Below are positions 20,581 through 35,350 of a stretch of DNA of 36,205 nt, piece after piece. Source of the DNA: a virus. The notes below the pieces were generated by a model. The model searched no databases, was not told the origin of the DNA, and saw nothing but the letters and a program-made list of their open reading frames with translations. The stretch's first letter is position 1, and each line of letters opens with the position of its first letter. The stretch lies in the IMG/VR virus record IMGVR_UViG_3300021256_000065; one strand, given 5' to 3'. The translations under genes and the position numbers were made by a program.

Positions 20581-20600
20581 CTTTAGATACCTCTCCTTCT

Positions 20601-20957
20601 TTAATATCCAGCCGCCTCTAATATATAGTCATAATTTATTCTTGCTTCATCCCAATAGGGAATGATTACTAAATTGATTCCATGATCTCGACAATATTCT
20701 CTTTTTTTCATATCATTATATTGTTGTTTTCTTAAACCATTATATCCACCAAATTTTTCTTTAGCTTCATAATGTTGAATGCCTTGAAATTCAATAAGAA
20801 AATCAATATTATGCTAATCATCAAAAACCGCAAAATCAAATCTTAGCGGGCGGCCTGTATTACTTACTAAATCTGGAAAAGAGTATTCTTCTGCGAACTC
20901 TAATCCAGACTCTTGTAGAATTTCTTCTATTTTAATTTCTCCTCTAGATGCTCGCAT
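20601..20957 (-). CDS. small PD-(D/E)xK-type endonuclease (DUF559/Vsr-like fold) with one in-frame TAG
   Basis: Protein 'MRASRGEIKIEEILQESGLEFAEEYSF...GRPLRFDFAVFDD*HNIDFLIEFQGIQHYEAKEKF...' shows the pattern 'D...(I/L)EFxG..H' typical of DUF559 and Vsr nucleases. RBS 'GGAGAaaaaat'. TAA stop. Confidence 0.4.
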
Positions 20958-21018
20958 ATTTTTTCTCCTTCACTATATTATATAAAAATTTTATCTATAA
21001 AATTAATAAACTTTGACC

Positions 21019-22755
21019 TTAAGCTGGAGTAAAAAATAAAAAGTCAGAAATATTACGTTTTTTCTTCTTTTTATTTAATTCCTATTCATAACGAATATAA
21101 TATAATCCATATATAAAAGCAGAAAATTTATCTTTCTTAATACTTCTATTGCTCTGTTTCAGAATGATATTAACTCCCTAATTTTCTTCTACAAGATTTA
21201 ACATTTGTTCTTTCAAAATTGAAGTTAATATAAAAGGCCGTAAATAATCATTTCTTTCATCAATATTCATATTTTGACCTTGTTTAGTTGACATTAATTT
21301 AGTTTTTGCCAACCCTTCATCAATTAAAAATCTAATCTTCCCACTAAACATCTGAGTTTGTGCATAACTATATGCCTATGTATTTATAGGTGCATTGGCT
21401 TTAATTAAGAATAAAATATCTCGTTCTGTCTCAGGAGTAACAAATTTTTTATATTCTGGATATTCATCTGTATTATAAACACCAAAAGGAGGTAAATATT
21501 CACCATCATCTGTATCTTGCGCTTTAACTAAATAATCAATAAGCCCAACTCCTAGACCATTAGCGTCGACTGCAATTCTACGCGGCCTATATTTATAATA
21601 CAAATGTTTTATATGAATACATTGAGTTTCAAAGTGTTCTGCATCATAAGTATAAATATTTACAAGAGTCTTATGAGCTGCCCCTTGAACTTGCGGAGTG
21701 ACCTTAAAAACACAAATCTCTGTAGTACATCCAACACGTCCAACGTCTATACCAAATACATAATAAGCATTTTTTGAAGACCGTCCGCTATATTCATACT
21801 ATGGTTGTAATAATACTCTATATTTATCAAATTTTTCAGAAGAAAAGAATGCGTTTTCTACATCACCAGACCAGATACTACGATATTCTCTATTGAATGA
21901 CTCATCATTAAAAGTACCTTGTAATCTTAATTGCTATACAAAATCTTCATCCAATAGACCAGAAATCACAGGTGTTTCATAAGTTCCGCCCATAATCATA
22001 TATTCTTCTGGATCAATGATAGAATTAATTAAAATTTCAATTAATTTGTGATAAGCAAAACTATTTTTCCATCCCGCTGTGGTTATATAAATTTGTGATT
22101 TATTAACATTCTCCTCTTTGTGGCGGCTACCATCTGAAAGTCTTCTATCAACGTTTGTAGTAGGAATAATAACTTCATTTAGAATATCACCATCAATTAA
22201 TACGCACTCTTCCATTAATCCACCAGTACGACGTTGACCTCTAGATGACTGCCTCGCCGCTAAGATATCAATAGTAGAGCCATTCTTAAATACATATTTA
22301 ACGTTATCTTTTGATTTAGTAGATACACCGCGATCCCAGTTAATTTCATTATTTAACCCAGGTATGAGTTTACATATTTCCTAAATTTTAGCAATAGTAA
22401 TAGAAGCAGCTTGCTCCTTTCCGCCTGTAGTCACAAATAAATGCGAATTAGGATATAAGATGCATCTAATCATTAATGCCATCATTGATAAAAAAGATTT
22501 AGAATATGCGCGCGGGAATGTCGCATACACATACCGATGCCGCATCACAATTCTAAGAAAAATTCTTTGATAAAATAAAAAATTAAATGTGCTATCTTTT
22601 CCTTTTATAAAATCCACAAAAATATCAGGATATTCCCTAAAATAAGCAATTAAATCTCTTAATCCATCTATGTCTTTCAATAGCCGCTATTCTGATAAAC
22701 CTTGTTTTTTATACTATCTGTCGGAGGATAACTGAAGTAATTCTTTTAAATTCAT
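21019..22755 (-). CDS. terL: terminase large subunit TerL with at least 7 in-frame TAG codons
   Basis: The ATG at 22755 follows 'AGGAGGcttaaacacga' and overlaps the upstream TGA (ATGA). The frame joins track ORFs 22381..22680, 21934..22215 and 21376..21603. Features include a Walker-A-like 'ATFPRAYSKS' and nuclease motifs 'FGIDVGRVG' and 'IAVDANGLGVG'. The stop is TAA at 21019. Confidence 0.75.
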
Positions 22756-24089
22756 TCGTGTTTAAGCCTCCTATTTATGTATTCTTCTTCAATTAAATCA
22801 TCATTTAAGTCATCATCATGATCTTTCATGTGATTTAAGGATTTTTTATAATTAGTAAAATCATCATCATCTAATTCCACATTATCTAATCCTTTAGCTT
22901 TTGCATCTTTTTTATCTTTTTTCATTTCATTTGAAATGCGTTTATCTTGCAAATATTTTTCAATTTCTTGCGCTAATGATTTATCTTCATAAATTAAGTT
23001 TTTATTATATGCTTTTAAATCTAAAATAATTTGATCAACAATATCTTGCGGCTAATTGCAATGATAACGTGGAATTTCTCCGCTATGAGCCTCAACAAAA
23101 TCAACAATAGCAGAAGCAGAATCAATTGTATCAGCATCTTTATCTTTATTCTGCGCCTATGTAAATTTTGCGGACTTCATCATAGAATCATAGACACGCG
23201 ATAATTTCTGGTAAGAATCGATGTCGCCGCAATCAATAGCCTCATTCATTTTGAGGGATGTCTTGCAAATCATTTTTAATGTATCAATACGTGCCGCCCC
23301 TTGAATATCAAATGAATTCATAAATTCATTATATAATTGTTCAAGAGCAACCCACTGACTGGGTTTATAAAGTCGGCCCCATTTAACCGCAAGATACATT
23401 TTATCATCATCATCTAAATTCGCACCAGGATCAACTATTTCGCTTTCCGCCATAAAATTTTGTTCTCTAAATGGATTTTTTGCTTGATTAAGCGCCTAGG
23501 CGTATGACTATGGTTGACCGTAAACCTGGAATATTTGGCCTAAATGTTCTCCTGTAATAGCATCCCCCCACCGCGGTAATTCCTTATTTTGAGTTTCTGT
23601 GCTAACAAGAGTCTGATACTAGGCGGGGGATATTTTTCCTTCGCTCAATTTAACTTTTAACGAGGCCTAATACCGCGCCTTCTCTTCTGCTTCGGCCTTT
23701 TCTTTTTTAGCCTTTTCCGCGTCCATTTCTTCTTGAATTTTTTTGGTATCCGCGTATCCATATTTGCTCCATTGTTTGAGCTTCATTTTAGCAAGATATT
23801 TACCAATAACAGACATTCCATTCATTTTATAAGGATCTTTCGCAAAAGCCTTATCTCTTAATACGTTCCATTCAGTAGGAATATAAGGAACATCCATTTT
23901 TTCAAGAATCCATTCAAAAGTGCTAGGATCAAAATTATCTATATGTGCGGTTAAGCATGGCTTGCAAATTTCACATTTACTACCATCTTTATATGTATAA
24001 AAATTTATTTGTGCAATTTTTTTGCCACACCGCTCGCATTGACATTTACCATTTGCGTCTTCTTGCTGTCCTTTTAATTTTTGCGCCAT
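22752..24089 (-). CDS. terminase small subunit-like protein with an N-terminal zinc ribbon and 6 in-frame TAG codons. It could be two coupled genes in one frame.
   Basis: Frame-continuous through track ORFs 23667..24089, 23157..23453 and 22752..22952. N-terminus 'CQCERCGKK...CEICKPC'. RBS 'AAAGGAGActtt'. The C-terminal TGA overlaps the terL ATG. Confidence 0.35.
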
Positions 24090-24138
24090 AAAAGTCTCCT
24101 TTCTTCATTTTTTATTTTTAAAAAAATTCTTTAATGAA

Positions 24139-25242
24139 TTAAAGACTTTTGTCCTTTTTCTTATTTCTACAACATTTACAAATACTATACCAACCATCCT
24201 TTGAAGTTCTATTTCTTGTAAAAAAATAAGGATGAGCAAGTTTTACCTAATGACAGCGCGAACATTTTTTCCATTTTCCTTTTTCTTCTATTGTATAATG
24301 CCAAATTATCCAATCTTCTTTTGCTTTTTCAGAAATAATTTTTGGGATTTTTTTCCGCCACACTGAAGATAAATATTCAATAGAATAAGTGATATTATAT
24401 TTATTTTTTATCTTTTCCGCAATTTCTTTATTTTGAAGTCCATCTATTTTATAAATCATAATATCATATAAAATAGGATAATCATCTTTCAATGCTCTTT
24501 CTATAAGATTATCTAGATCCTCCATTAAGTACCACCAATCATCGTCAAAATGGCCCCAAACGTCTTCTTTTAATTTAGAATAATTACACAATAGACAACA
24601 AACATGCTATGGATTAAATAGTGATACTAAACAGTTACTTTCTGGGTCAAAATTTTCATTTATTTTTATTTTTTCATTTAAATTTATTTGATTAGCGCTT
24701 TTGGTTATCCGCATCATAGTAATGGGCGGTTTGTAGATACTTTTTAATACATATTGATCTTGTCTAGCTTCAATTAATTGTTTTGTAAGTAAGAATTTTT
24801 GTTTTCCCTTAGCCGCCTTTTGCCGCGCCTCTATTTTTTTAATTTCTTCTCTTAATTCTTTTAATCCTGGTATAGTTATTATATCTTCTTCTGTGATTTG
24901 TATTTTTGGAACTAATAAAATGTTTTTATCGCCGCCAGTCATAAAGTTATAAATGCCATCCTCGCCATTCTATAACTTGGAAACTAGACCTTCATAGGAG
25001 ATTTCTCTTTTGTTGATAGTTACCATCCTATTGTCTGTTAAGACTTTCCGCTCTTTTTTATTATCATAAGTTTCTGTTAAGTATTTTGTAAGCTATTCTA
25101 AATAATAAGGAGTAAGTTTTTCTGAGGGAATATTATTAACAATTTCATGTACTATTTTATTACGCTATTGAGGGTCAATAATAGTATAATCCAAGGTGGG
25201 ATAAGGTCTTTTAGACTACATATTTTCTAACTCTTTTTCCAT
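24139..25242 (-). CDS. first gene of the late operon: putative transcription regulator with a sigma-70 region-4-like HTH and a C-terminal zinc ribbon. Contains 6 in-frame TAG codons.
   Basis: The ATG at 25240-25242 follows 'AAAGGAGtatttc'. The frame runs through track ORFs 24607..24942 and 24247..24591 to the TAA at 24139. 'YKIDGLQNKEIAEKIKNKYNITYSIEYLSSVWRKKIPKI' resembles sigma region 4.2. The C-terminus reads 'CSRCH...CKCC'. Confidence 0.35.
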
Positions 25243-25381: not shown

Positions 25382-25576
25382 ATGAATATGAAAGCAATAG
25401 CAAATTATAATATGGGCTTTGATAAGGGGACCTTTGTAAAAGGGAAAGCTTATAATTATAGGAGGGCTGATGAAGAAAATTCACAAAGATTTTTTATAAC
25501 AACAGAAGAGAATGCAGAACAAGAATTATGGGACACAGAATTTGATATATTATTTACTATAGAAGGAGAAGAGTAA
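25382..25576 (+). CDS. hypothetical early protein
   Basis: First ORF after the early promoter. Stops on TAA. Confidence 0.5.
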   Translation: MNMKAIANYNMGFDKGTFVKGKAYNYRRADEENSQRFFITTEENAEQELWDTEFDILFTIEGEE

Positions 25577-25578
25577 TT

Positions 25579-25944
25579 ATGGAAAATAATAATTGTCGTG
25601 TAACTACTGAATTTAAGGTAAATGCGGAGAAGCGAACTGTATTGTGTATTATAACTGCGATTAATGATGTACCAATTCGATTGGCAAAATATGGATTAGC
25701 AGATGAAGATTATGATAATATTGATTTTGATATTCGTATTTATAAGGGGATTGCGCGGTGCGCGCCTGAAGATACTTGGGATGAGTCTTATGGAAGGAAA
25801 TTGGCAGAGTATAGAGCATCTTGTGAACGCCGCACCGATGTTAATAATGAATTGAAAGCTTATATTAATGATATTTCTAGACGGATTGATAATCTTTATG
25901 ATTATGGCCTTATGAAAGATCCCCATATGCTGGAGGAGAAGTGA
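25579..25944 (+). CDS. hypothetical early protein
   Basis: 121-aa ORF closely packed with its neighbours. Confidence 0.5.
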   Translation: MENNNCRVTTEFKVNAEKRTVLCIITAINDVPIRLAKYGLADEDYDNIDFDIRIYKGIARCAPEDTWDESYGRKLAEYRASCERRTDVNNELKAYINDISRRIDNLYDYGLMKDPHMLEEK

Positions 25945-25971
25945 TGGTCGCCGCCATCACCTCTAATCACT

Positions 25972-26175
25972 ATGAAGAAAACATATTGTGATAGATGCGG
26001 AAAAGAAATTTATTATGATCCGCAGCAACAAGCTATTTTACCGACGTATAATATAAGTTATGCAACATATGGTATTTGTTATCAACCAAATCATTTTGAT
26101 TTATGTGGTAATTGTCAAAATGAATTTAATAATTGGATGGAAAAATGGTTAAAGGAAAAAAGAAATGAAAATTGA
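25972..26175 (+). CDS. small zinc-ribbon protein
   Basis: Motifs 'CDRCGKE...CGNC'. Its ATG region overlaps the next gene. Confidence 0.45.
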   Translation: MKKTYCDRCGKEIYYDPQQQAILPTYNISYATYGICYQPNHFDLCGNCQNEFNNWMEKWLKEKRNEN

Positions 26176-26497
26176 TGTAAAATATAATATAGGAGATAGT
26201 ATTCAATATATTGAAAAAATATCTCATTCAGTTTGGGGTCGTTGTCCATGCTGCGAGGGTGAAAAATATATTATTGGTGCAGATGGAGAACAATATGAAT
26301 GTCCTAAGTGTGATGGGAATGGTAAAGTGTACAAGAGAGATTTAAATGTTGAAGATGAAAAAACAGGAACAATAAAAAGTATTCATATTCATTATGATAG
26401 TGATATGGACTCTTATCATGGAAAACCAGATATTTATTACACCATTCCAAAAAATTTTCATCATATTCAACAAGACGATATTATTGGAAAAATATAA
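26165..26497 (+). CDS. small zinc-ribbon protein
   Basis: Motifs 'CPCCEGEKY...CPKCDGNGK'. Confidence 0.45.
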   Translation: MKIDVKYNIGDSIQYIEKISHSVWGRCPCCEGEKYIIGADGEQYECPKCDGNGKVYKRDLNVEDEKTGTIKSIHIHYDSDMDSYHGKPDIYYTIPKNFHHIQQDDIIGKI

Positions 26498-26811
26498 TGG
26501 CTGAATTTATTTTTACAAAAGAAAAAGTTGTTATGCCAGGAGAGAAGATAGGAATGATATTACAGAAACATACAATAGATGAAGTCCCACCCGCAGATAA
26601 AGAGCTATTAATGGTTATTGATATTGGGGCGGCAAATGAATATAATCTTTGGACGGTGGGAACTTGGGATGATGAACGTGGTTGGTGTTGTTCTTTTGAT
26701 GAAGTTGGATATACTGTTGTTGAATGGTATGAATTGCCGCCGCAAAAGAGAATAGTAGAAGATTATTCTTATCATCAGATGAGAATGGAAGAATTTTGGA
26801 ATGATAAATGA
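26497..26811 (+). CDS. hypothetical early protein
   Basis: The ATG overlaps the previous TAA as TAATG. Confidence 0.45.
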   Translation: MAEFIFTKEKVVMPGEKIGMILQKHTIDEVPPADKELLMVIDIGAANEYNLWTVGTWDDERGWCCSFDEVGYTVVEWYELPPQKRIVEDYSYHQMRMEEFWNDK

Positions 26812-27041
26812 AAAATGAGAAAATGTGGGAAAATATAAGTTTGCAAGAAATAATTAGGATGGCTTTTCCGCGGGGATGGGATAAAATAAGGTATTGGAAG
26901 CGAAAACCGCAGGCTTATACTTTAGAGAAGGCTCTTGAAACTTTGCAAACTATGTTGGCTACACAAGATATTAATTTAATGATAGATTGGGCATATAATG
27001 AATTTATTCCACCTTACGCGGTGCATAGTATAAAAAGATGA
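26808..27041 (+). CDS. hypothetical early protein
   Basis: ATGA overlap with the upstream gene. Confidence 0.45.
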   Translation: MKNEKMWENISLQEIIRMAFPRGWDKIRYWKRKPQAYTLEKALETLQTMLATQDINLMIDWAYNEFIPPYAVHSIKR

Positions 27042-27229
27042 GATTTATAGCAGAAGATAATCCAAATTTATATATTGATGTAGAAAATTACAGTGAATTA
27101 GAAAAAAAAATAAAAGAATTTGGAAATCCTAATTATAATTATGAAGTTATTTTTGAATTTCATGATCCTCGAATTGCGGGAAGAATAAAAGCAAATAAAA
27201 AAGGGGATAAGTATGGAAAGAATAATTAA
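27038..27229 (+). CDS. hypothetical early protein
   Basis: ATGA overlap with the upstream gene. Confidence 0.4.
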   Translation: MRFIAEDNPNLYIDVENYSELEKKIKEFGNPNYNYEVIFEFHDPRIAGRIKANKKGDKYGKNN

Positions 27230-27425
27230 AGGACGTTTTAAAAATAATGGAGAATATAAAGAAGAAGATAAATATACTCCTATTTTAAATAATGGTGCAG
27301 TTGTAGGTTTTATTGAATCAGTAGAAAAAGAAAATATAAATATTATATTGTGGGGAAAATGTATTTCTAAAGAATATTTATACGGTGAATCAGAGAATAT
27401 TCTTTGTTCAATTTCTTTTTGTTAA
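27213..27425 (+). CDS. hypothetical early protein
   Basis: RBS 'AAAGGGGATAAGT'. Stops on TAA. Confidence 0.4.
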   Translation: MERIIKGRFKNNGEYKEEDKYTPILNNGAVVGFIESVEKENINIILWGKCISKEYLYGESENILCSISFC

Positions 27426-27664
27426 GAGGGGAAGTCATTTCCTCGATTTAGAGAGGGAATCGCTTTTTCGATTCAAAAATACTTTTGGAGAGAGAAATGT
27501 GGTGGAGAAGATCAATTGTGAATTTTTTAACATTTTCATCCCAAAAAACACCCCCCGGTATAAACAAGGTATGGTCGCTAGCTTCGTTAAATAATTAACA
27601 GACCTGGCAAAAATACAGGCCCTAAATAAACATGAAAAGATATTAAAATATTTTAGAGTATTCT

Positions 27665-27727
27665 AAAAACACACTTTTAAAAAACATGTGAAAATAAATC
27701 ATTGCATGTTTTTAAGTGTGTTTTTTT
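27665..27727. repeat. Large imperfect palindrome: about 22-bp arms with a 16-nt loop and a T-run. It could be a terminator or a structural element.
   Basis: 'AAAAACACACTTTTAAAAAACATG' is followed 16 nt later by its near-reverse-complement 'CATGTTTTTAAGTGTGTTTTTTT'. Confidence 0.5.
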
Positions 27728-27855
27728 ATTGAAAATGAAAATGTGTTATTTTAAAAAAATGATTATTAATAAAAAGATTTTACTAATTGAGCGTTTCAAT
27801 AAATTAAAAAATGTATTAAAATAATGAATAGATAAAATATTAACAATGTTCATGT

Positions 27856-27930
27856 TTCTAATGTAGCGACTTTGTTAAAAAATTAACAAAGTTTGTAATG
27901 TAGCAACTTTGTTAAAAAATTAACGAAGTT
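27856..27930. repeat. Two 33-bp direct repeats (iteron-like), each containing the 22-bp palindrome CTTTGTTAAAAAATTAACAAAG. A third partial copy lies at 28166-28198.
   Basis: 'AATGTAGCGACTTTGTTAAAAAATTAACAAAGT' and 'AATGTAGCAACTTTGTTAAAAAATTAACGAAGT' start 38 bp apart. A region with AT content above 85% lies just upstream, at 27730-27855. Confidence 0.55.
27870..27891. promoter_or_regulatory. Palindromic operator-like site CTTTGTTAA-AAAA-TTAACAAAG, the strongest copy of this motif family
   Basis: Perfect 9-bp inverted arms around an AAAA centre. Confidence 0.5.
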
Positions 27931-28269
27931 AGAAGCTAACGACTTCTGTTGGCCACAACAAACTTTGACCAATTTTTATTTTTTGGCTTTAATAAAATGA
28001 GTTTACTAATTAGCAAAAGAACAGGATCAGATAGTAAACAGACTGTACTAATTAGACAATGTAGCGAATACTTCAATACACTAAAGTGTTAGAGAACTAA
28101 AGCAACAGCAGACGAAAGGCACACAAAGCGACTAAGTAATAACTGTTTACTATATTAATAAGAACTAATGTAGAAAGATTGTTAAAAAATTAACGAAGTA
28201 ATGATACTTACAGACTTAAAAACACTAAAAAGTAAATTCATTTTACAATATATTTTTTTCAAAAAAGTG

Positions 28270-28298
28270 TTGACTTTTTCCCGGACTTTTGATATAAT
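28270..28298 (+). promoter_or_regulatory. sigma-A consensus promoter (TTGACT-17-TGaTATAAT) for cassette ORF 28347
   Basis: Read directly. It is followed by the conserved leader 'CAAATCATCAAAGAGAGG'. Confidence 0.55.
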
Positions 28299-28346
28299 CA
28301 AATCATCAAAGAGAGGTACACAAAACAAGAAAGAGAGGATAAGGAA

Positions 28347-28610
28347 ATGAAAAAAGAGACTTGCGGAGTTGCTATAGAAAACAATCTGAAAGTAAATGCT
28401 TTCCATTACGTACCAGAAACAAAGGAAGAAGAAATCAAAGAAACCGAACAAACTATCGCATTCCTTAAGAATCAGTTGGCTGACTATGAAAAAGAACTCC
28501 AGGAAACGGTCAAGGCTCAAAGAAGAAGCGAAATCAGCTTCCACATCGACATGATTCAGAGGAGAATAAAATTTGAAGAAAAAAATCTTTTTTTCCAAAA
28601 AAACGCTTGA
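28347..28610 (+). CDS. hypothetical early cassette protein with coiled-coil character
   Basis: 87-aa ORF with RBS 'GAGAGGATAAGGAA'. The TGA stop overlaps the -35 of the next promoter. Confidence 0.5.
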   Translation: MKKETCGVAIENNLKVNAFHYVPETKEEEIKETEQTIAFLKNQLADYEKELQETVKAQRRSEISFHIDMIQRRIKFEEKNLFFQKNA

Positions 28611-28635
28611 CAAAAATCCGGTTCTCTATTATAAT
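28607..28635 (+). promoter_or_regulatory. sigma-A promoter TTGACA-17-TATAAT for the HAD hydrolase cassette
   Basis: Read directly. Confidence 0.5.
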
Positions 28636-28665
28636 AAAGATAACAAAAGAGAGGAGAACAAAGAA

Positions 28666-29106
28666 ATGACAAGAACAATCTTCTTCGATATGGATGGAAC
28701 AATCGCAGACCTTTACAAAGTAGACGGATGGTTGACCGACCTTATCAACAAAGATGTAAGACCTTACAGAGAAGCCAAAGTGATGCACAACATGCAAGTG
28801 CTTGCAAGACTTCTCAACAGACTTCAAAGGGAAGGAAACAAAATAGCAATCATCAGTTGGCTAGCAAAAAACAGCACAGAAGAATATGACGCAAGAGTAG
28901 CACAGACTAAAAAAGAATGGTTGAAAAAACATCTCACAAGCGTTAATTTCGATGAAATCCACATTGTAAAATATGGAACAAAAAAAGAAACATTCATTCA
29001 CACAGAAAACGACATTCTCTTCGACGATGAAGAGCAGAACAGAAACAACTGGACAGGAAAAGCTTACAACGTAAACAATATAATCGAAACACTGAAGAGC
29101 CTTTGA
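28666..29106 (+). CDS. HAD-superfamily hydrolase, 5'(3')-deoxyribonucleotidase-like
   Basis: The N-terminal 'FFDMDGTIAD' matches HAD motif I (DxDGT). RBS 'GAGAGGAGAACAAAG'. The ORF track start at 28573 reads through the promoter and is not used. A terminator follows at 29095-29121. Confidence 0.5.
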   Translation: MTRTIFFDMDGTIADLYKVDGWLTDLINKDVRPYREAKVMHNMQVLARLLNRLQREGNKIAIISWLAKNSTEEYDARVAQTKKEWLKKHLTSVNFDEIHIVKYGTKKETFIHTENDILFDDEEQNRNNWTGKAYNVNNIIETLKSL

Positions 29107-29308
29107 AAAGGCTCTTTTTTAATGCAGAATGTTAGTTATGACTAATTCTCGCGGCGAGCGAGATTGTTAAAAAAATAACAAACGCAGGCGGGCGCTTGAA
29201 GCCGAAAAATTTTATCACAGGTGGGTCGCACTTGTCAAGATGAAAAATTGCACAAAATAACAAATTAAATTTTTTCCCATTTTGTGCAATATTTTTTTCC
29301 AAAATGTG

Positions 29309-29337
29309 TTGACAAAAACCGGGTTATCGCTTATAAT
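29309..29337 (+). promoter_or_regulatory. sigma-A promoter TTGACA-17-TATAAT
   Basis: Read directly. 'CCGGG' occurs in the spacer. Confidence 0.5.
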
Positions 29338-29383
29338 TACATCAGAAACAAACAAGAGAGCTAAACAAAAGGAGGATAAAAAA

Positions 29384-29593
29384 ATGACAGGATACAAAGT
29401 TACAATGGAAATGAATGGAAGAAGAACCGACAGCTTTTCGGGATACATTAAAACAATGGAAGAAGCCAAAGATTATTGCGAATGGCTTGGTAAAGAAAAT
29501 GAACCGAAAATCATCACCTGCAACAAGAAAAGAATTACAAGATGGTTTAACTGGTATGAAACTAAAAAGGCATGGGAAAATCTTGAGGATTAA
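29384..29593 (+). CDS. hypothetical early cassette protein (69 aa)
   Basis: RBS 'AAAAGGAGGATAAAAAA'. Stops on TAA, followed by the hairpin 'GAGGATTAAAAATCCTC'. Confidence 0.5.
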   Translation: MTGYKVTMEMNGRRTDSFSGYIKTMEEAKDYCEWLGKENEPKIITCNKKRITRWFNWYETKKAWENLED

Positions 29594-29623
29594 AAATCCT
29601 CAAGATTTTTTTATTGCATCTGC

Positions 29624-29680
29624 ATTGTTAAAAAATTAACAAACGTCTGTTTGCATCTAGATTGTTAATTTTTTAACAAT
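29624..29680. promoter_or_regulatory. Two adjacent copies of the palindromic motif: ATTGTTAAAAAATTAACAAAC and TTGTTAATTTTTTAACAA
   Basis: Sites at 29624-29644 and 29663-29680, upstream of the promoter at 29768. Confidence 0.45.
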
Positions 29681-29767
29681 TTTCGCTGGACCGCGCACTG
29701 CCACATTGCACAAAGGGTCTTTTGTTTTTGAGATTTTTTTTGTGTATTTTTTTCTTCATGTAATAGG

Positions 29768-29796
29768 TTGACTTTTCCGGTTAAATAGCTTATAAT
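29768..29796 (+). promoter_or_regulatory. sigma-A promoter TTGACT-17-TATAAT with the conserved leader
   Basis: Read directly. Confidence 0.5.
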
Positions 29797-29842
29797 CAAA
29801 TCATCAAAGAGAGATAGACATCAAAAGAAAGGAAAAAACATC

Positions 29843-30028
29843 ATGACATTATTATTCGCAATCTCAACCGCAATCTTCATTATCAGCTCTTTTATCATTT
29901 TCATCTTCTCTTGGAAAATTACTGAAAAAACTCAAGACATCTTAAGAATTGTTGCTCTTGTTAGCGCAATAATGATAATCGTATCACTATTTATTTTTCC
30001 ATTTATTCAAGTATTTTTTTTAAAATAA
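29843..30028 (+). CDS. small membrane protein with two transmembrane helices
   Basis: Sequence 'MTLLFAISTAIFIISSFIIFIFSWKI...IVALVSAIMIIVSLFIFPFIQVFF'. Confidence 0.5.
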   Translation: MTLLFAISTAIFIISSFIIFIFSWKITEKTQDILRIVALVSAIMIIVSLFIFPFIQVFFLK

Positions 30029-30031
30029 TGA

Positions 30032-30060
30032 TTGACAATCTAGTCAATCTCTGTTATAAT
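30032..30060 (+). promoter_or_regulatory. sigma-A promoter TTGACA-17-TGtTATAAT
   Basis: Read directly. Confidence 0.5.
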
Positions 30061-30090
30061 CAAATTATCAAAAGAAAGGAGATATAAACA

Positions 30091-30222
30091 ATGAAAACTA
30101 CAAGAGGTTGGTACATCTTCAAGGACGGCACGCAGGCATGGTTCAATGGTCTCTCCGCAAGAGAGAAGAGGAACGAAGTCATAAAGCACGGCGAGATTGT
30201 CAAATTCATCCCCACACCTTGA
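30091..30222 (+). CDS. small basic protein (43 aa)
   Basis: RBS 'AAAGGAGATAT'. The TGA stop is followed by the terminator 'GAGGCTCtacatGAGCCTCTTTTTT' at 30221-30246. Codon usage is richer in GC than the neighbouring cassettes. Confidence 0.45.
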   Translation: MKTTRGWYIFKDGTQAWFNGLSAREKRNEVIKHGEIVKFIPTP

Positions 30223-30336
30223 GGCTCTACATGAGCCTCTTTTTTATGTGCAGAATATTGATACTTACATTAAACGTATTCAAAAGTTAAAAGTTGGTGA
30301 TTTTGATTGTTAAAAAAATAGCTTTCAAAAAAAGTG

Positions 30337-30365
30337 TTGACATTATTCCGGACATCTGATATAAT
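30337..30365 (+). promoter_or_regulatory. sigma-A promoter TTGACA-17-TGaTATAAT
   Basis: Read directly. Confidence 0.5.
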
Positions 30366-30395
30366 TAAATCATCAAAAGAAAGGAGATATAAAAA

Positions 30396-30647
30396 ATGTT
30401 ATACAGAATTGACAGAGAATTTGATGAATACATTGGTGCAGGAGAATACGAAACAAAAAAATATTATCAGTATGTATGTGGTTTACATAATGTTGGTAAA
30501 GCTTGCCTTGATACAGATGAGAACGATAGAATTGTTCGAATTGTAAAATTGAATTTTTCTATTAAAGGTTTGATTGTATGCTTGAAAAAAACTTGTTCTT
30601 CTCAGTATAATCAAACAAGTACAGAAAAATTTTCAAAAAAGTGTTGA
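30396..30647 (+). CDS. hypothetical early cassette protein
   Basis: RBS 'AAAGGAGATAT'. The stop overlaps the next -35. Confidence 0.45.
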   Translation: MLYRIDREFDEYIGAGEYETKKYYQYVCGLHNVGKACLDTDENDRIVRIVKLNFSIKGLIVCLKKTCSSQYNQTSTEKFSKKC

Positions 30648-30672
30648 CAAACCAGATGAAATATGATAATAT
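30644..30672 (+). promoter_or_regulatory. sigma-A promoter TTGACA-17-TGaTAATAT
   Basis: Read directly. Confidence 0.45.
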
Positions 30673-30701
30673 TAAATCATCAAAAGAAAGGAGAAACAAA
30701 A

Positions 30702-30878
30702 ATGAACGAAAGAGAAAAGCTTTTAGATAGGATGATTAGAATCTACGGTTTTGAACATGAACTGGTCATCGAGTTCGCGGGGATGATTGAAAACCCCAGC
30801 TATAAGACCGAAATCCTTGAAACCTTGGTGAGATGCCACGAGGCGTGCCCACAGATTACAGACAAAGAGGACCTATAG
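30702..30878 (+). CDS. hypothetical early cassette protein (58 aa). It ends on a TAG that lies in the loop of a terminator hairpin.
   Basis: RBS 'AAAGGAGAAAC'. The TAG at 30876-30878 sits within 'GAGGACCTATAGGCCCTCTTTTTC'. Read-through would add 59 residues across two GC-rich hairpins. Confidence 0.45.
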   Translation: MNEREKLLDRMIRIYGFEHELVIEFAGMIENPSYKTEILETLVRCHEACPQITDKEDL

Positions 30879-30925
30879 GCCCTCTTTTTCTATGTGCGGC
30901 GCGCTTTCTGCCGGCGCGCGCCGAA
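30867..30925 (+). terminator. Twin terminator: a hairpin plus T-run, followed by the GC-rich hairpin CGGCGCGC...GCGCGCCG
   Basis: Read directly. The same twin structure recurs at 31895-31953. Confidence 0.55.
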
Positions 30926-31117
30926 AAATCCATTCTATCATACCTGTCACCTTTTGTCAAGGGAAAAATTGCACAAATTTTCATCGAAATTTTATCCCAA
31001 AATTCGTCACTTTTTCAAAAGTGAAAAATCAGTCTTTTCTTGTTAAAATTTTGACAATCGCCTAAAAATGAAAAATCGGTGATTTTGATTGTTAAAAAAA
31101 TAACTTTCAAAAACATG

Positions 31118-31146
31118 TTGACAACCGGGCAGATTGGGTTTATAAT
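31118..31146 (+). promoter_or_regulatory. sigma-A promoter TTGACA-17-TATAAT (paralogous to the promoter at 32223)
   Basis: The -35 is 'TTGACAACCGGG'. The leader 'AAGGTTACAAACAAGGAAGGGAGA' is shared with the cassette at 32223. Confidence 0.5.
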
Positions 31147-31177
31147 AAGGTTACAAACAAGGAAGGGAGATCCACCA

Positions 31178-31645
31178 ATGAAGAAAATCAGCACTCTTAC
31201 CAATATCGAATACATGTTCGACCCGAACCGCTCCGGCGCTAAGTATACACTAGACGGCACACACTATATGAACAACGGAGAGTTTGCCGAAGTCGCTACA
31301 AAGGTGGCTCTTGGATATGAACCCCATAAGGATGCTAACACCGCATATAGCGAAGGGAGTGACATCCCTGAACTCCGAGCAAGCGTTAAATCCAGTAAAG
31401 CAACCTTAGTCAATATGAAACTTGCGGATGGATTTGAAGAGTCAATTGAAGTTTACTTCAAAAATACTCATAGCACTTGCTTCATCTACACCGTCCTTTT
31501 GGATGACATGACAACTCTCTATATAATGGACGCCGCTGAATTTAGAGAGTTCATCCACAGATTTGCTACCCTCAATGAGAGAGGCTTCATCCGCTTCAAA
31601 GCTACCAGCGGAAAGACGATCCAGTGGCTAGAGGAGAGGGTATAA
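31178..31645 (+). CDS. hypothetical early cassette protein (155 aa) with GC-rich codon usage
   Basis: The real ATG is at 31178, after 'AAGGAAGGGAGA'. The track ORF start at 31079 runs through the promoter and is not used. Confidence 0.5.
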   Translation: MKKISTLTNIEYMFDPNRSGAKYTLDGTHYMNNGEFAEVATKVALGYEPHKDANTAYSEGSDIPELRASVKSSKATLVNMKLADGFEESIEVYFKNTHSTCFIYTVLLDDMTTLYIMDAAEFREFIHRFATLNERGFIRFKATSGKTIQWLEERV

Positions 31646-31681
31646 ACCCTCTCCCCAACAAAATTTTTTCAAAATTAACAC

Positions 31682-31710
31682 TTGACAAATATTAAATCAT
31701 CTGTTATAAT
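31682..31710 (+). promoter_or_regulatory. sigma-A promoter TTGACA-17-TGtTATAAT
   Basis: Read directly. Confidence 0.5.
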
Positions 31711-31740
31711 TAAATCATCAAAGAACAGGAGAACAAAACA

Positions 31741-31896
31741 ATGACAAAAGAACAAATTAAAAACATGATGGAAGCAACAGGACAAAAACTTATTTATGAG
31801 GATGACTACAATCTTGAATATGAAAATCCTATGTATGGAGAAACTATTAATTTTGAATTTAACTCAGAAGGGTTATTCTATAAAATTTATAGCTGA
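31741..31896 (+). CDS. small early cassette protein (51 aa)
   Basis: RBS 'AACAGGAGAAC'. TGA stop, then the twin terminator. Confidence 0.45.
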   Translation: MTKEQIKNMMEATGQKLIYEDDYNLEYENPMYGETINFEFNSEGLFYKIYS

Positions 31897-31953
31897 GGGC
31901 GGAAGCCCTCTTTTTTATGCGCGGCGCGCTGGTGGCCGCACCAGCGCGTTTTT
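31895..31953 (+). terminator. Twin terminator: GAGGGCggaaGCCCTC plus T-run, then CGCGCTGGTGgccgCACCAGCGCG plus T-run
   Basis: Read directly. Confidence 0.6.
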
Positions 31954-32043
31954 CCATTGTACCATACCCATCGGGTTTTGTCAATTGACATTTTGCACAA
32001 ATTTTAATGCTAAAAATATCCTAAAATTCGTCATTTTTTCAAA

Positions 32044-32215
32044 AGTTAAAAATTGGTAGATTTCTTGTTAAAAATTTAACAATCGACTAAAAGTGAAAAA
32101 TCGGCAAAGTTCTTGTTAAACTTTTAACAATCTACCTACCACCCCTTGTTAAATTCTTAACAAGGGAAAAGTTAAAAATCGGCGGTTTTGACTTTGTTAA
32201 AAAAATAACTTTTAA
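32044..32215. repeat. Tandem array of four palindromic TTGTTAA-N4/5-TTAACAA sites, each preceded by a 'AAAGT(G/T)AAAAATYGG' half-unit. It lies directly upstream of the promoter at 32223.
   Basis: Palindromes at 32065-32082, 32113-32130 and 32144-32165 (CCTTGTTAAATTCTTAACAAGG), plus the half-site 32196-32211. A two-copy version of the same array sits at 31020-31100. Confidence 0.55.
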
Positions 32216-32222
32216 AAAGGGG

Positions 32223-32251
32223 TTGACAACCGGAGTAATAGGGCTTATAAT
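32223..32251 (+). promoter_or_regulatory. sigma-A promoter TTGACA-17-TATAAT
   Basis: 'TTGACAACCGGAG' plus the shared leader. Confidence 0.5.
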
Positions 32252-32282
32252 AAGGGTACAAACAAGGAAGGGGGACAACCTA

Positions 32283-32744
32283 ATGACTACCAACACCGCA
32301 CTCCACATCAATCTGATTGACCGCTACAATGCCGTTGCTTACACCCATGAGTATGTATGGGGCTTCACCTACAAAAAGAATGTCTATATGGCAATCACCG
32401 ACGCAACTGTGATGCCGTTCGTTACCTGCCTTGACAAGGCAAGCCGTGGTGCTGGATATGCACTCCGCTTCTGCCCCAACACTCAGCAGAAAATCGCTCT
32501 GCTTCCATATGCGACCCTCCTTTGCTCTGAAGCCTACTTCAATGAGGTAGTCGCCGATAGCAAGTATAATAAGGGCGAAATCTTTGAAAAAATGGTTACC
32601 GAACATTTCGGGCAGACTTGGGAAAAGGATAATGTCCCCTTCACAGAAGACGGCGATATCACAGTCAACGGTACTGCATATCAAATCAAGTTCCAGAAAG
32701 CCACCTTCTGCAACGAAAAGAGCATAGCCAACCTTGAAAAATAA
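32283..32744 (+). CDS. hypothetical early cassette protein (153 aa) with GC-rich codon usage
   Basis: ATG follows 'AAGGAAGGGGGA'. The track start at 32223 is spurious. Confidence 0.5.
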   Translation: MTTNTALHINLIDRYNAVAYTHEYVWGFTYKKNVYMAITDATVMPFVTCLDKASRGAGYALRFCPNTQQKIALLPYATLLCSEAYFNEVVADSKYNKGEIFEKMVTEHFGQTWEKDNVPFTEDGDITVNGTAYQIKFQKATFCNEKSIANLEK

Positions 32745-32785
32745 GGTTGGCTATATAGCCCGGGCGCTTGAAAAAAAATTTCATA

Positions 32786-32814
32786 TTGACATTTTAAAAA
32801 AACTATTGTATAAT
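32786..32814 (+). promoter_or_regulatory. sigma-A promoter TTGACA-17-TGTATAAT
   Basis: Read directly. Confidence 0.5.
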
Positions 32815-32841
32815 GTATATAGAAAGTGAGGGAAGAACAAA

Positions 32842-33102
32842 ATGAAAACTTTTATATTCGCTTTTTTCTTGACTATCGCAGGAATCATCGGAACATGGGA
32901 ATCTGAATATTCTAGACCCGTAATCTGCACCTACTATGACCCCTGCACTAATATTTCTACTTTCACAGACAATAGCGGGAATGATTGGGAATGGGAAAAT
33001 GAAAATGATGAAGTTTTTGAAATCGGAAAGTCCTATACCATCATCATGGATGATAATCATTCTTCTTCTATCTATGATGACATCATTAAAAAAATAAAAT
33101 AA
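32842..33102 (+). CDS. small protein with an N-terminal hydrophobic segment, either secreted or membrane-anchored
   Basis: 'MKTFIFAFFLTIAGIIG' followed by an acidic soluble part. RBS 'AGTGAGGGAAGAAC'. Confidence 0.45.
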   Translation: MKTFIFAFFLTIAGIIGTWESEYSRPVICTYYDPCTNISTFTDNSGNDWEWENENDEVFEIGKSYTIIMDDNHSSSIYDDIIKKIK

Positions 33103-33118
33103 AAAAATAAAAAACCTA

Positions 33119-33147
33119 TTGACAAACTAGAAAAGAAAGTTTATAAT
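33119..33147 (+). promoter_or_regulatory. sigma-A promoter TTGACA-17-TATAAT
   Basis: Read directly. Confidence 0.5.
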
Positions 33148-33178
33148 AGACTTATCAAAAGAAAGGAAGAAAAAAATT

Positions 33179-33409
33179 ATGACGAACGTATCCTATGATA
33201 TTTACCGCAACAATCAGAAAGTAAAAAATGTAACTACCTACGCTGAGGCGGTTGCTTCTGTTAAAGAGCTGGGCGGGCGCGGGACTTTCAAGACTGTTTA
33301 CACTAGCTTCAACCCCGAAGACACCGCAGAAAAGCGTGAATACGCCCATTCTCACGCTCAGAAAGTACATGAAGCGCTGAAGCGTAAAGCAGGGGTTAAG
33401 AAACATTAA
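33179..33409 (+). CDS. small basic protein (76 aa)
   Basis: RBS 'AAAGGAAGAAAAAAATT'. GC-rich codons. Confidence 0.45.
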   Translation: MTNVSYDIYRNNQKVKNVTTYAEAVASVKELGGRGTFKTVYTSFNPEDTAEKREYAHSHAQKVHEALKRKAGVKKH

Positions 33410-33457
33410 CCCCTGCACCCCCACAAATAAGAATACAATAGAAAGGAAGTAAAAAAA

Positions 33458-33679
33458 ATGAAAGTATCTATTAACTATTCAATTCCTGTTTCAGCGGTTA
33501 TTGTTTTTGATGAAATTTTCCGTTGTTCTGAACTGACTGACGGCTCTTATCCCCTGCAGAGATACATTGATAAAGCTGAAGAACTTATGCATATGTACGG
33601 TTTTGAATGGGCAGATATCATTGATGATGATGACGGTACTGTGATTGCTCAAATTGAAAGAGAGGACGATGATGAATGA
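33458..33679 (+). CDS. small, strongly acidic protein
   Basis: C-terminus 'ADIIDDDDGTVIAQIEREDDDE'. RBS 'AAAGGAAGTAAAAAAA'. It is co-transcribed with 33179. Confidence 0.45.
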   Translation: MKVSINYSIPVSAVIVFDEIFRCSELTDGSYPLQRYIDKAEELMHMYGFEWADIIDDDDGTVIAQIEREDDDE

Positions 33680-33765
33680 TACTAATGGTATTGTTGATGA
33701 TGACAGCGGCCTTCCTTATAGTTTTACTGAATGATGATGGCCCAAATAGACCGAGGTTTACATGA
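33676..33765 (+). CDS. 29-aa hydrophobic micro-ORF coupled by an ATGA overlap to the acidic protein gene
   Basis: 'MILMVLLMMTAAFLIVLLNDDGPNRPRFT'. Its stop lies in the loop of the terminator at 33749-33780. Confidence 0.25.
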   Translation: MILMVLLMMTAAFLIVLLNDDGPNRPRFT

Positions 33766-33820
33766 CCTCGGTCATTTTTCGCCCGGGTCGCATGTTAAAA
33801 AAATAACTAACAAAGACCGC

Positions 33821-33849
33821 TTGACATTCTTTTATTGTTTTGATATAAT
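33821..33849 (+). promoter_or_regulatory. sigma-A promoter TTGACA-17-TGaTATAAT
   Basis: Read directly. Confidence 0.5.
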
Positions 33850-33875
33850 CATTATCAGAAAGGAGATGTAACACA

Positions 33876-34367
33876 ATGAAATTTTTGAATGAAGATTTAC
33901 TTGTTTCCTTAGTAGATGATTTTCTTGAGCCTTTTGGCCTTGACTCAGATTTTTCAAGTGATTTTTCATACGACCCTGAAGATGAAAGAGTTTATTTTTC
34001 AATCGCTTTTTCTGAAAGGTCTGATAGACTTTTTAAAGAGTATGTTGAAAAAACTTTTCATTTCAATGTTCCACACATTTTTATGATTAGTTTGTTGCAT
34101 GAGGTTGGACATTTTTTCACCCTACATACATTTTCTAAAATGAGATTAGAAGCTGTCCACTCAGCAAAAAATCTCATTGAAGAAGCGTTAAAAATGGATG
34201 ACGATGATGAAATCTATTCTTTGTATTTTGATTTAAGCATCGAAAAGGTTGCAACGGCTTGGGCGGTTGACTATTACAGAAAAAACATGAAACGCTGTGA
34301 AGATTTTTATTCAAAGTTTGTAAATGCCCTTAGAACGGAATATAAAAGGCTGGGAGTGACTGAGTAA
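33876..34367 (+). CDS. putative zinc metallopeptidase (HExxH motif)
   Basis: 'ISLLHEVGHFFTLHTF' contains HEVGH. 163 aa. RBS 'AAAGGAGATGT'. Confidence 0.4.
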   Translation: MKFLNEDLLVSLVDDFLEPFGLDSDFSSDFSYDPEDERVYFSIAFSERSDRLFKEYVEKTFHFNVPHIFMISLLHEVGHFFTLHTFSKMRLEAVHSAKNLIEEALKMDDDDEIYSLYFDLSIEKVATAWAVDYYRKNMKRCEDFYSKFVNALRTEYKRLGVTE

Positions 34368-34424
34368 GTCACCCCTAACCGCCCGGGCAGCGAGATTGTT
34401 AAAAAAATAACTTTTAAAATGGTA

Positions 34425-34453
34425 TTGACATTTGTTCCTTTGTGTGGTATAGT
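34425..34453 (+). promoter_or_regulatory. sigma-A promoter TTGACA-17-TGgTATAGT
   Basis: Read directly. Confidence 0.45.
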
Positions 34454-34479
34454 ATAACCATGAAAGAGAGGTAAACAAA

Positions 34480-34821
34480 ATGGCTCGTAAAATTTTCTTC
34501 GCAAGAGATTGGGACAAAGTTGGTAGAAATTATTATGAAATTTATACCACTGTTTGTATGGGATATACTTTTACTGTTGGAAAAGGAATTGAAAGAGACC
34601 CGAACTTTTCTATCTTTTATGTAACTAATGATGGACAGCATGACCATTACGAAATCCTTAATGTTTACATTACTGCAGGCGATACCATCGAAGATACACA
34701 GAAAGGCGTTCTTACTACTCTCAAAAGAGAAATGAAAAGAGTTATTCAAAGAGGGTTGACAACTCGTGTAAAAAGTGGTATGCTTACTATAGAACAGATA
34801 GAAAGGTGGGTAACAAAATGA
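34480..34821 (+). CDS. hypothetical early cassette protein
   Basis: RBS 'AGAGAGGTAAAC'. Confidence 0.5.
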   Translation: MARKIFFARDWDKVGRNYYEIYTTVCMGYTFTVGKGIERDPNFSIFYVTNDGQHDHYEILNVYITAGDTIEDTQKGVLTTLKREMKRVIQRGLTTRVKSGMLTIEQIERWVTK

Positions 34822-34956
34822 CAAATTTAAAAGATTTTATGTTATTTCAAATAGGCTCCTATCAAGTTATGGGATTATTCAGTAAAAAAGCTGATACGAA
34901 ACTCAAACGTATTTTACATTATTTGCCTGTATTGATTATTAAGAAAGGATAACAAA

Positions 34957-35196
34957 ATGTATAAACTCTATTCAAGAATAAGTGACCATGAAACAATCCT
35001 TGAACTGTGGGGCGCATCAACCAAACATCCTGATAGCGTGTTTTTCTTTTCAGAATTTGAACCAAGCCCATGGTTTGACAGGATTGACCAAATTGTTCCT
35101 TGGCTTCTGGAATGCGCAAGCAAAATGAACTGGCCTATCCATTCTTACGAACTGGCAAAATGGGCGTGCATGATTTACGAGTCATGGCGCGGTTAG
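34957..35196 (+). CDS. hypothetical early cassette protein
   Basis: RBS 'AAGAAAGGATAAC'. Confidence 0.45.
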   Translation: MYKLYSRISDHETILELWGASTKHPDSVFFFSEFEPSPWFDRIDQIVPWLLECASKMNWPIHSYELAKWACMIYESWRG

Positions 35197-35218
35197 AATT
35201 AATGAAAGGAGATACATC

Positions 35219-35350
35219 ATGCAGGAACTTTTCGATCTTTTCTATCTCTATGATTACATGGTTATGCACACTGTTGATGAAGAATATGAGGAATACATAC
35301 ACCTGCGTCGTTACGTTGCAAAGCTGATTGAGGGGTTGGGGGCTGAGTAA
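35219..35350 (+). CDS. small protein (43 aa)
   Basis: RBS 'AAAGGAGATACATC'. The 3' end carries the shared element 'GGGGGCTGAGTAAGTCCCC'. Confidence 0.4.
   Translation: MQELFDLFYLYDYMVMHTVDEEYEEYIHLRRYVAKLIEGLGAE

Follow-up and report, generated by a model that had tools for sequence, protein, structure and literature searches.

Phages that read the physiology of their hosts through the hosts' own regulators are, to our knowledge, known from only a few cases, the LexA boxes of temperate phages being one of them. The bacterial repressor Rex, which senses NADH/NAD+, usually occupies a site over or just downstream of the core promoter, where bound Rex blocks RNA polymerase. Repeats of other kinds characterize the lambda replication origin, which combines iterons with an AT-rich unwinding element, and the iteron and centromere repeat arrays P1 incA and F sopC.

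The genome of phage phi29 carries binding sites for the host regulator Spo0A, and suppression of the lytic cycle depends on these sites (PMC2731898). In phage SPbeta, an operator is repeated in approximately 9-10 early intergenic regions, where the phage's own repressor binds (PMC10516654). The Rex box consensus of Clostridiaceae is TTGTTAANNNNTTAACAA (PMC9600882, PMC5367854), and that of Staphylococcus aureus and streptococci is TTGTGAA-N4-TTCACAA (PMC2883068, PMC6018154); a class-V aminotransferase is among the validated Rex targets in C. bescii (PMC6391272).

Genomic Context of the Locus

The window, as the whole analysed stretch of 36,205 nucleotides from the IMG/VR virus record IMGVR_UViG_3300021256_000065 is called here, belongs to a low-GC gut phage with a genome of ~134 kb. 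In its capsid protein, this phage shares 52% identity with phage phAss-1 and 35% with Enterococcus phages of 134-142 kb. phAss-1 is filed under the "code 15" clade, in which TAG stands for glutamine; with TAG read as a sense codon, long minus-strand ORFs in the interval 8.7-25.1 kb of the window rise from 5.9 to 14.2 kb. Clostridia are the predicted hosts of the phAss-1 group (PMC10607447). The genes of the window are arranged in four blocks:

205-8569, plus strand: replication and nucleotide genes
to ~25.0 kb, minus strand: late block
25382-27425, plus strand: block of small genes, the upstream operon
from 28347, plus strand: early cassettes, ~17, single-gene, each with its own TTGACA-17-TATAAT promoter and Shine-Dalgarno sequence

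The ~17 consensus sigma-A early promoters are all on the plus strand, in an array that reaches position 35884. Late proteins of the clade to which this phage belongs match the Pfam families YonD_N and YonG_N, the names of which point to SPbeta proteins; a conserved late-operon protein has 4037 relatives, none of them with a name.

Extent and Layout of the Non-Coding Hub

Between the upstream operon and the early cassettes lies an intergenic control region of several parts, here called the hub, which heads the early-gene array. An earlier note on this DNA had described a non-coding stretch of 660 bp at 27600-28260; no gene was found there, but the non-coding region is larger, comprising 921 bp (27426-28346) from the stop codon of a 70-aa gene (27213-27425) to the start of the gene at 28347-28610, as delimited by ORF lists and by promoter- and RBS-anchored gene calls. 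The features of the hub, and the related sites downstream of it, are the following:

27426-28346, no strand: entire non-coding hub, from the end of the upstream plus-strand block to the first early cassette gene
27437-27470, plus strand: short terminator-like hairpin, placed at 27437-27460, with T-run, from a terminator scan (8 pairs, then CGCTTTTTCG), just past the stop of 27213-27425
27454-27560, plus strand: single-copy DNA element of ~105 nt, conserved in the clade, unique in the window, with the core AAAAAnTTTTGGAGAG ... AAAAATTTTTTTCCCRAAA-N3-ACCCCCC
27516-27533, no strand: hybrid Rex-like box TTGTGAATTTTTTAACAT, one mismatch to TTGTKAA-N4-TTMACAA, confined to the window-type allele
27665-27728, plus strand: intrinsic terminator, a 24-pair hairpin followed by U7, identified by folding and as inverted repeat I7/I11; closes the operon 25382-27425
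27730-27855, no strand: AT-rich spacer, 84.9% AT by composition, exchanged in allele B of close relatives
27854-27927, plus strand: two head-to-tail 37-bp repeats with one palindrome each, at 27872-27889 (perfect, TTGTTAAAAAATTAACAA) and 27909-27926 (one mismatch)
27965-27993, plus strand: weak sigma-A-like candidate promoter TTGACC-17-TTTAAT, kept among close relatives
28161-28197, plus strand: third, diverged 37-bp copy with a box at 28179-28196 (one mismatch); the box ends 73 nt 5' of the first early promoter's -35 hexamer
28270-28298, plus strand: first strong early promoter, TTGACT-17-TATAAT with TG, heading the array of ~17 promoters
29164-32163, no strand: seven more boxes between cassettes, starting at 29164, 29625, 29662, 31040, 32065, 32113 and 32146

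No small protein is indicated in the hub, since the ORFs inside the gap are not conserved among relatives; relative L014 has a TAA within the reading frame that covers 27498, and in the 31-aa ORF at 27997-28092 all four substitutions that separate the window from relative L002 alter the amino acid. Scans for tRNAs and Rfam families yielded no tRNA and no family at gathering score, the hub matches staying at chance level with E of 2-5; a small RNA in the conserved right half (27998-28265) was unsupported (z = -1.0), and a DNA search of the hub against annotated phages returned no match. The genes flanking the hub gave nothing informative on function in Pfam and PHROGs, and no recognizable DNA-binding domain. 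The description of this region as a master regulatory region, which the earlier note had put forward next to a replication origin, was borne out in substance: the conserved non-coding hub heads the array of consensus sigma-A promoters, and operator-type palindromes cluster in it and appear again between the downstream cassettes.

A large palindrome with a T-run had also been reported, and is confirmed at 27665-27728, where 24 pairs, interrupted by one 3-nt bulge and closed by a 10-nt loop, precede U7. The hairpin has a Delta G of -21.6 kcal/mol (z = -4.5), and 0 of 200 shuffles folded as well; stable, directly followed by its U-run and located 240 nt past the last gene of the upstream plus-strand block, it has the properties of an intrinsic terminator. 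Since an A-run precedes the hairpin, termination may be possible in both directions. The neighboring AT tract at 27730-27855 had been credited with more than 85% AT; the AT-rich tract is real, but at 84.9% it falls just below that value. It belongs to the top 0.2% of 126-nt segments in this DNA, which peak at 87.3% AT in the segment starting at 27721.

Repeats and Palindromes in the Window

The two direct repeats and the third copy, each with an embedded palindrome, were found as previously described, except that the units are 37 bp rather than 33 bp long and stand head to tail. The tandem units (27854-27890 and 27891-27927) are 92% identical, and the third copy (28161-28197) is 76% identical. 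The motif AATGTAGC, said to recur four times, has three exact copies (at 27860, 27897 and 28058), but the fourth reads AATGTAGA; its count alone is not above chance, since three copies were reached in 13 of 100 shuffles.

The enrichment of the palindrome is of a different order. With up to two mismatches, TTGTTAA-N4-TTAACAA has 14 matches in the window versus 1.24 expected, and 13 of these fall between 27516 and 32163; with up to one mismatch, the degenerate form TTGTKAA-N4-TTMACAA has 11 sites versus 0.135 expected from local-composition shuffles, all of them intergenic and within 27.5-32.2 kb. Scored against the Clostridiaceae Rex consensus, the window contains six perfect and four one-mismatch sites, three of the ten being in the hub. 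The hub has three good and one or two weak copies of the palindrome, 38-400 nt upstream of the first consensus promoter; the seven inter-cassette boxes are all intergenic, 59-140 nt upstream of the next -35 hexamer, and the boxes of the window end 38-140 nt upstream of the next -35 hexamer. Variation among the sites in the window is limited to the 4-nt spacer and the flanks, with constant half-sites, which is the signature of a dimeric DNA-binding protein. Motifs of other host factors (cre, LexA, CodY, Fur, PerR, Spo0A, ArgR, DnaA) showed no enrichment in the window.

The Hub in Close Relatives and in the Wider Clade

A gap of 921-925 bp that is equivalent to the hub is common to six independent assemblies, among which the segment at ~27501-27908 exists as two alleles. 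The window-type allele carries the hairpin, the AT tract and two tandem boxes; allele B (L004, L081 and L082) has unrelated sequence of the same length, with an AT-rich hairpin of its own and a single box. Identity between the alleles amounts to 98.7% in the left flank and 95.9% in the hub's right half; boxes, and the hub from 27909 onward, are kept across both. The hairpin, the AT tract and the tandem repeats have been swapped between near-identical genomes, and the features that suggest an origin are therefore exchangeable.

When 2.9 million viral contigs were scanned for pairs of perfect boxes separated by 8-38 nt, 48 stretches emerged, many of them with arrays of 7-24 boxes. Examples are L013, with ten boxes repeating every 24 bp exactly; L009, with twelve spaced by 20-25 bp; L010, with thirteen; and L017, with 24 arranged in pairs. 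At least 20 of the 48 have late genes in common with the window, and in these loci the order is late block, variable small genes, box array and early promoters. At the hub's syntenic place, clade phages carry arrays of 4-24 boxes. The box motif is invariant across phages with proteins that are 30-60% identical. In an unbiased sample of 80 clade loci, drawn by the conserved late-operon protein with boxes disregarded, TTGTTAA arrays occurred in only ~6 loci, and some loci were without any array; other clade members carry, at the hub position, arrays of TTAGTTA-N4-TAACTAA, GTTAGT-N4-ACTAAC or CCGAAC-N4-GTTCGG.

The 105-nt element at the left edge of the hub is present in at least 20 box-bearing loci (nhmmer profile), always 5' of the palindrome array and in one orientation; it also occurs in ~55 of the 80 clade loci that were sampled regardless of boxes. 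RNAalifold predicts no pairs in this element, which, lacking a consensus RNA fold, is therefore a DNA site, separate from the operator cluster.

Enterococcus phage H1, the host of which is E. faecium, shares the genome layout of the window, with a non-coding hub of ~1 kb between its late block and a consensus promoter array. H1 contains six TTGTGAA-N4-TTCACAA sites versus 0.57 expected, all in two intergenic hubs; the TTGTGAA subtype is the one reported for Bacilli, the class of H1's host. TTGTGAA arrays were also found at the syntenic place in the metagenomic clade members L170 and L173, and L017 has both subtypes. In addition, the H1 hubs contain three perfect copies of TGTAAGCGCTTACA, versus none expected, a sequence that is the ideal CcpA cre site. 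Among Enterococcus phages the hubs are 95-97% identical, too similar for footprinting. A Mammaliicoccus SPbeta-like phage had no boxes in the 50 kb scanned. The complete genome of phAss-1 has one box, no array and no 105-nt element; with array and element both absent, phAss-1 was rejected as a model for the genome ends and for a matching hub.

Probable Identity of the Binding Protein

The palindrome of the window, TTGTTAA-N4-TTAACAA, equals the Clostridiaceae Rex consensus, and subtype and host can be compared: H1 carries the Bacilli subtype, and the window carries the Clostridial subtype in a group predicted on Clostridia. In 596 Gb of bacterial genomes, tandem boxes occurred in only 21 stretches, several of which are phage contigs binned into MAGs. 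The chromosomal tandem boxes precede genes for NuoE/HydC-like 2Fe-2S subunits, a class-V aminotransferase and an acyl-CoA dehydrogenase; as these neighbors are NADH-linked, the palindrome behaves as a Rex operator should. A search for Rex homologues was negative for the window, for the complete phAss-1 genome and for the 76 loci covered, and a phage-encoded Rex was dismissed. Rex matches in the 'phages' collection are mostly unannotated or unverified records that resemble host DNA. Nothing relevant on Rex boxes in phage genomes, or on phage decoy sites, was found in the literature searched. Identity to the Rex operator sequence, invariance of the motif and, in H1, the subtype that matches the host class make host Rex the likeliest binder; judged from these sequence comparisons, the chances that the hub is an operator hub for host Rex are put at about even. 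Counting against this reading are the placement of the boxes away from core promoters, the rarity of the array in the unbiased sample of clade loci, the other palindromes found at its position, the single box of phAss-1 and the lack of boxes in the scanned part of the Mammaliicoccus phage; in addition, the search for a regulator in this phage covered 36 kb of ~134 kb.

Alternative Explanations

The main rival to the host-Rex reading is a phage-encoded repressor. The palindromes would then be operators for a phage-encoded master regulator of the SPBRE/MrpR type, which would switch the early cassettes off for lysogeny or in an early-to-middle shut-off, and the match to Rex would be coincidence or mimicry. 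Such a binder is plausible in light of the SPBRE precedent (the window likewise repeats its operator in early intergenic regions), of the families named for SPbeta proteins among the clade's late proteins, and of the array motifs that vary between clade members, as co-evolving protein-site pairs would. Yet no candidate binder adjoins the hub, and none was recognized in the 36-kb window or near the arrays of relatives; the family of the gene at 32283-32744, which often adjoins arrays, occurs with and without boxes and was rejected as the box binder. The box motif, moreover, stays invariant across phages with widely diverged proteins, and its two variants are exactly the two known Rex subtypes, matching the host class in the single case where the host is known. 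Against this background, a phage-encoded repressor is considered unlikely.

A replication origin, in which the palindromes would act as initiator-binding iterons and the AT tract as an unwinding element, as in the lambda origin, is quite improbable: none of five sequence tests gave a supporting result. Cumulative GC skew, a check that had been proposed for the complete genome, has along the 36-kb window its maximum at ~8.8 kb and its minimum at ~25.0 kb, where the strand switches are, and no inflection at 27.4-28.3 kb; no DnaA-box-like site with up to one mismatch occurs within 27426-28346; and the nearest ~8 kb contain neither an initiator nor a replication gene, Pol III alpha and nucleotide-metabolism genes being 19-27 kb away. 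Where iteron origins have their repeats at one locus by an initiator gene, the genes flanking the hub are small and without replication domains, and the supposedly iteron-like palindrome is not confined to the hub, since it has seven more intergenic copies across 4.3 kb; cassettes have boxes dispersed among them over 4-11 kb. An AT-rich tract does lie beside the repeats, but allele B, in near-identical genomes, has other sequence in place of both tract and tandem repeats and keeps one box there, and many clade members are without such an array. The low probability that is retained for an origin reflects the resemblance of tandem palindromes adjoining an 85% AT tract to lambda-type origins, together with the conserved 105-nt element alongside, with its A/T tracts and short direct repeats; relatives with 10-13 boxes at 20-25 bp spacing also resemble iteron arrays. 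Very improbable is a structural DNA site, either a partition centromere (sopC/parS-like) or an ejection or packaging site near a genome end, for which the 105-nt element would be the recognition site. The dense head-to-tail arrays of relatives such as L013, the adjacency of the single-copy conserved element to the terminase and late-operon region, and several contigs that end in or near the array speak for such a site. The window, however, has no gene resembling parA or parB; assemblers are expected to break contigs at repeats such as these arrays, and the contig ends do not fall at one nucleotide; and the PhageTerm cut of phAss-1 is ~5 kb from the first early cassette (a HAD-like gene), not beside it.

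Proposed Function and Its Implications

Returning to host Rex, the placement of the boxes constrains the mode of action. Among 109 box-promoter pairs from phage loci, none had the box centered between -45 and +20; positions were broadly spread, and there was no fixed box-to-promoter distance in these pairs, only small peaks at -64.5 and -75.5. The phage boxes are not in the usual Rex position over the core promoter, and since they never overlap it, simple occlusion is unlikely. With its Rex-identical palindromes and its terminator, the hub resembles a control region linking infection to the NADH/NAD+ state of the host, rather than a replication origin.

A dimeric regulator would use the palindromes as operators, and since they equal the Rex consensus, the NADH/NAD+-sensing Rex of the host is the most likely candidate. 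At low NADH/NAD+, this repressor would occupy the hub and the sites between cassettes, and at high NADH/NAD+ it would leave them. The best explanation involves one or both of two consequences: Rex oligomers on the hub and inter-cassette sites could gate or insulate early transcription at low NADH/NAD+, or the sites could soak up Rex, with the effect that the NADH-recycling regulon of the host would be derepressed as phage DNA multiplies.

More doubtful, and offered as a tentative generalization, is the possibility that a hub for sensing the state of the host precedes the early genes throughout a large, abundant clade of Firmicutes phages from the gut and rumen, and that different members plug into it operator arrays for different host global regulators: Rex in the window, Rex plus CcpA cre in H1, and LexA-like boxes elsewhere. 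The Rex arrays might then gate the start of infection on NADH/NAD+, or act as a multicopy sponge that removes Rex from the chromosome and rewires host fermentation. If Rex loads on the arrays, infection by a common group of gut phages would be linked to the redox and energy state of their anaerobic hosts; alternatively, host fermentation would be reprogrammed by Rex titration, and either outcome would bear on gut phage-host dynamics. Phage H1 and its relatives, which are in culture, grow on a genetically tractable host and have a hub of the same kind, make the hypothesis directly testable. As a caution, an AT tract plus repeats should not be read as an origin.

Comparison with Known Systems

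The hub shares with the lambda origin, P1 incA and F sopC tandem, partly palindromic repeats spaced by ~20-40 bp beside an AT-rich tract; unlike iteron origins and centromere arrays, it has no adjacent initiator or partition gene, its sites are scattered over kilobases, and the AT tract is not conserved among near-identical genomes. The SPBRE/MrpR system of SPbeta resembles the locus in its short operator, repeated in many early intergenic regions of a phage of ~134 kb. It differs in that SPBRE is a 15-bp motif in promoter regions, bound by a phage-encoded recombinase-fold protein, whereas the motif of the window equals a host operator and no phage binder was found in the 36-kb window.

With the Rex operators of Gram-positive bacteria, the palindromes share the 18-bp inverted repeat, the 4-nt AT-rich spacer and both half-site variants; the Clostridial (TTGTTAANNNNTTAACAA) and the Bacilli (TTGTGAAW4TTCACAA) subtypes are both found in clade phages, and in bacteria tandem copies precede NADH-linked operons. 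In contrast to bacterial Rex operators, these putative sites are phage-borne, form clusters or arrays of 3-24, and lie upstream of core promoters. The Spo0A boxes of phi29 answer to a sporulation phosphorelay signal rather than NADH/NAD+, and site numbers, phage family and genome size differ; the effects in phi29 are experimental, and the hub is read here from its sequence. phi29, a Firmicutes phage that is classed as lytic and carries sites for a global regulator of its host, as is proposed for the hub, is nevertheless the closest experimental precedent.

Alleles and a conserved element at the hub

Compared with three relatives that are otherwise near-identical (L004, L081 and L082), the window carries one of two sharply different alleles of equal length in its non-coding hub, at 27501-27908; the exchange starts within a conserved element of approximately 105 nt and ends at the second Rex-like box (TTGTTAA-N4-TTAACAA). 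Since the two equal-length alleles occur in genomes that hardly differ elsewhere, the sequence comparison suggests recombination at the hub between related phages. The conserved element is as follows:

27454-27560: non-coding, single-copy DNA element of approximately 105 nt, with the core TTTTGGAGAG ... TTTTTTTCCCRAAA-N3-ACCCCCC

It is kept in most members of the clade, despite proteins that are only 50-60% identical, and two or three direct repeats, each approximately 31 nt long, often lie upstream of it. No RNA fold was found in the element. It may serve as a pac site or mark a genome terminus, or else act as an origin or as a special promoter. The element sits just to the left of 27600-28260, the span that the earlier note had assigned to the hub.

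Early promoters and cassette array

Three kinds of feature recur in the array of single-gene cassettes:

28270-35884, + strand throughout: approximately 17 near-perfect TTGACA-17-TATAAT promoters
~29232-29256, 30954-30977 and 31978-32001: second recurrent inter-cassette motif, TTGTCAA-N7-8-(A/T)TTGCACAAA
30883-31178 and 31911-32283: duplicated leader of approximately 200-300 bp

Each promoter serves a single small ORFan gene that has a strong Shine-Dalgarno sequence, and close relatives differ in cassette content; L004, for example, lacks window positions 30399-31910. The inter-cassette motif, which may be a phage-specific promoter or a further operator, is found also in distant clade members (L096, L132, L138 and L154). 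It forms part of the duplicated leaders as well, together with a GC-rich hairpin, 48-nt units (GTGAAAAATCGG plus a Rex-like box) and a promoter; these leaders sit upstream of two paralogous genes of 153-155 aa (31178-31645 and 32283-32744).

Late genes and metabolic cargo

In-frame TAG codons interrupt the late genes on the minus strand (8739-25000), where the total length of ORFs of at least 600 nt rises from 5.9 to 14.2 kb when TAG is read as sense. This gain is consistent with TAG-to-Gln recoding of the kind known from phAss-1, although the 36-kb window holds no suppressor tRNA. Metabolic cargo includes one gene of a kind that is unusual in phages:

6089-6649: formate/nitrite-transporter-like gene (Pfam E = 2.6e-13)

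It is flanked by the anaerobic ribonucleotide reductase gene nrdD (4014-6086) and by two short ORFs (6680-6850 and 6865-6999) that, judged solely by their position beside nrdD, might be activase gene fragments. Phage phAss-1 encodes a nicotinamide phosphoribosyltransferase, a ribose-phosphate pyrophosphokinase and a nicotinamidase (98196-101298 in the Phass-1 record); these three genes are an NAD+ salvage set, and NAD(H) metabolism is therefore important to the phAss-1 phage group.

Palindrome arrays in other phages and bacteria

Different palindrome arrays occupy the same syntenic place in the clade members L088 (displayed as reverse complement from 8972), L138, L154, L101, L161 and L096/L132. 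Among the palindromes in these arrays are TTAGTTA-N4-TAACTAA, in at least 12 tandem units, GTTAGT-N4-ACTAAC, in dozens of copies, and CCGAAC-N4-GTTCGG, which resembles the Firmicutes LexA box.

Among bacterial genomes, perfect Clostridial-type Rex boxes in tandem are rare (21 stretches in 596 Gb); the chromosomal examples, in MAGs of Erysipelotrichaceae, Acutalibacteraceae and Ruminococcaceae, stand upstream of NuoE/HydC-like, SerC-like and Bcd-like genes. Enterococcus phage H1 (L164) has two hubs:

14421-15396 of L164: non-coding hub
23795-24397 of L164: non-coding hub

Together they hold six Bacilli-type Rex boxes (TTGTGAA-N4-TTCACAA), three perfect, cre-like TGTAAGCGCTTACA palindromes, many copies of AAATAACA/TGTTATTT, and a LexA-like CGAACATATGTGCG; since H1 is a cultured system, the Rex-hub hypothesis is testable there.
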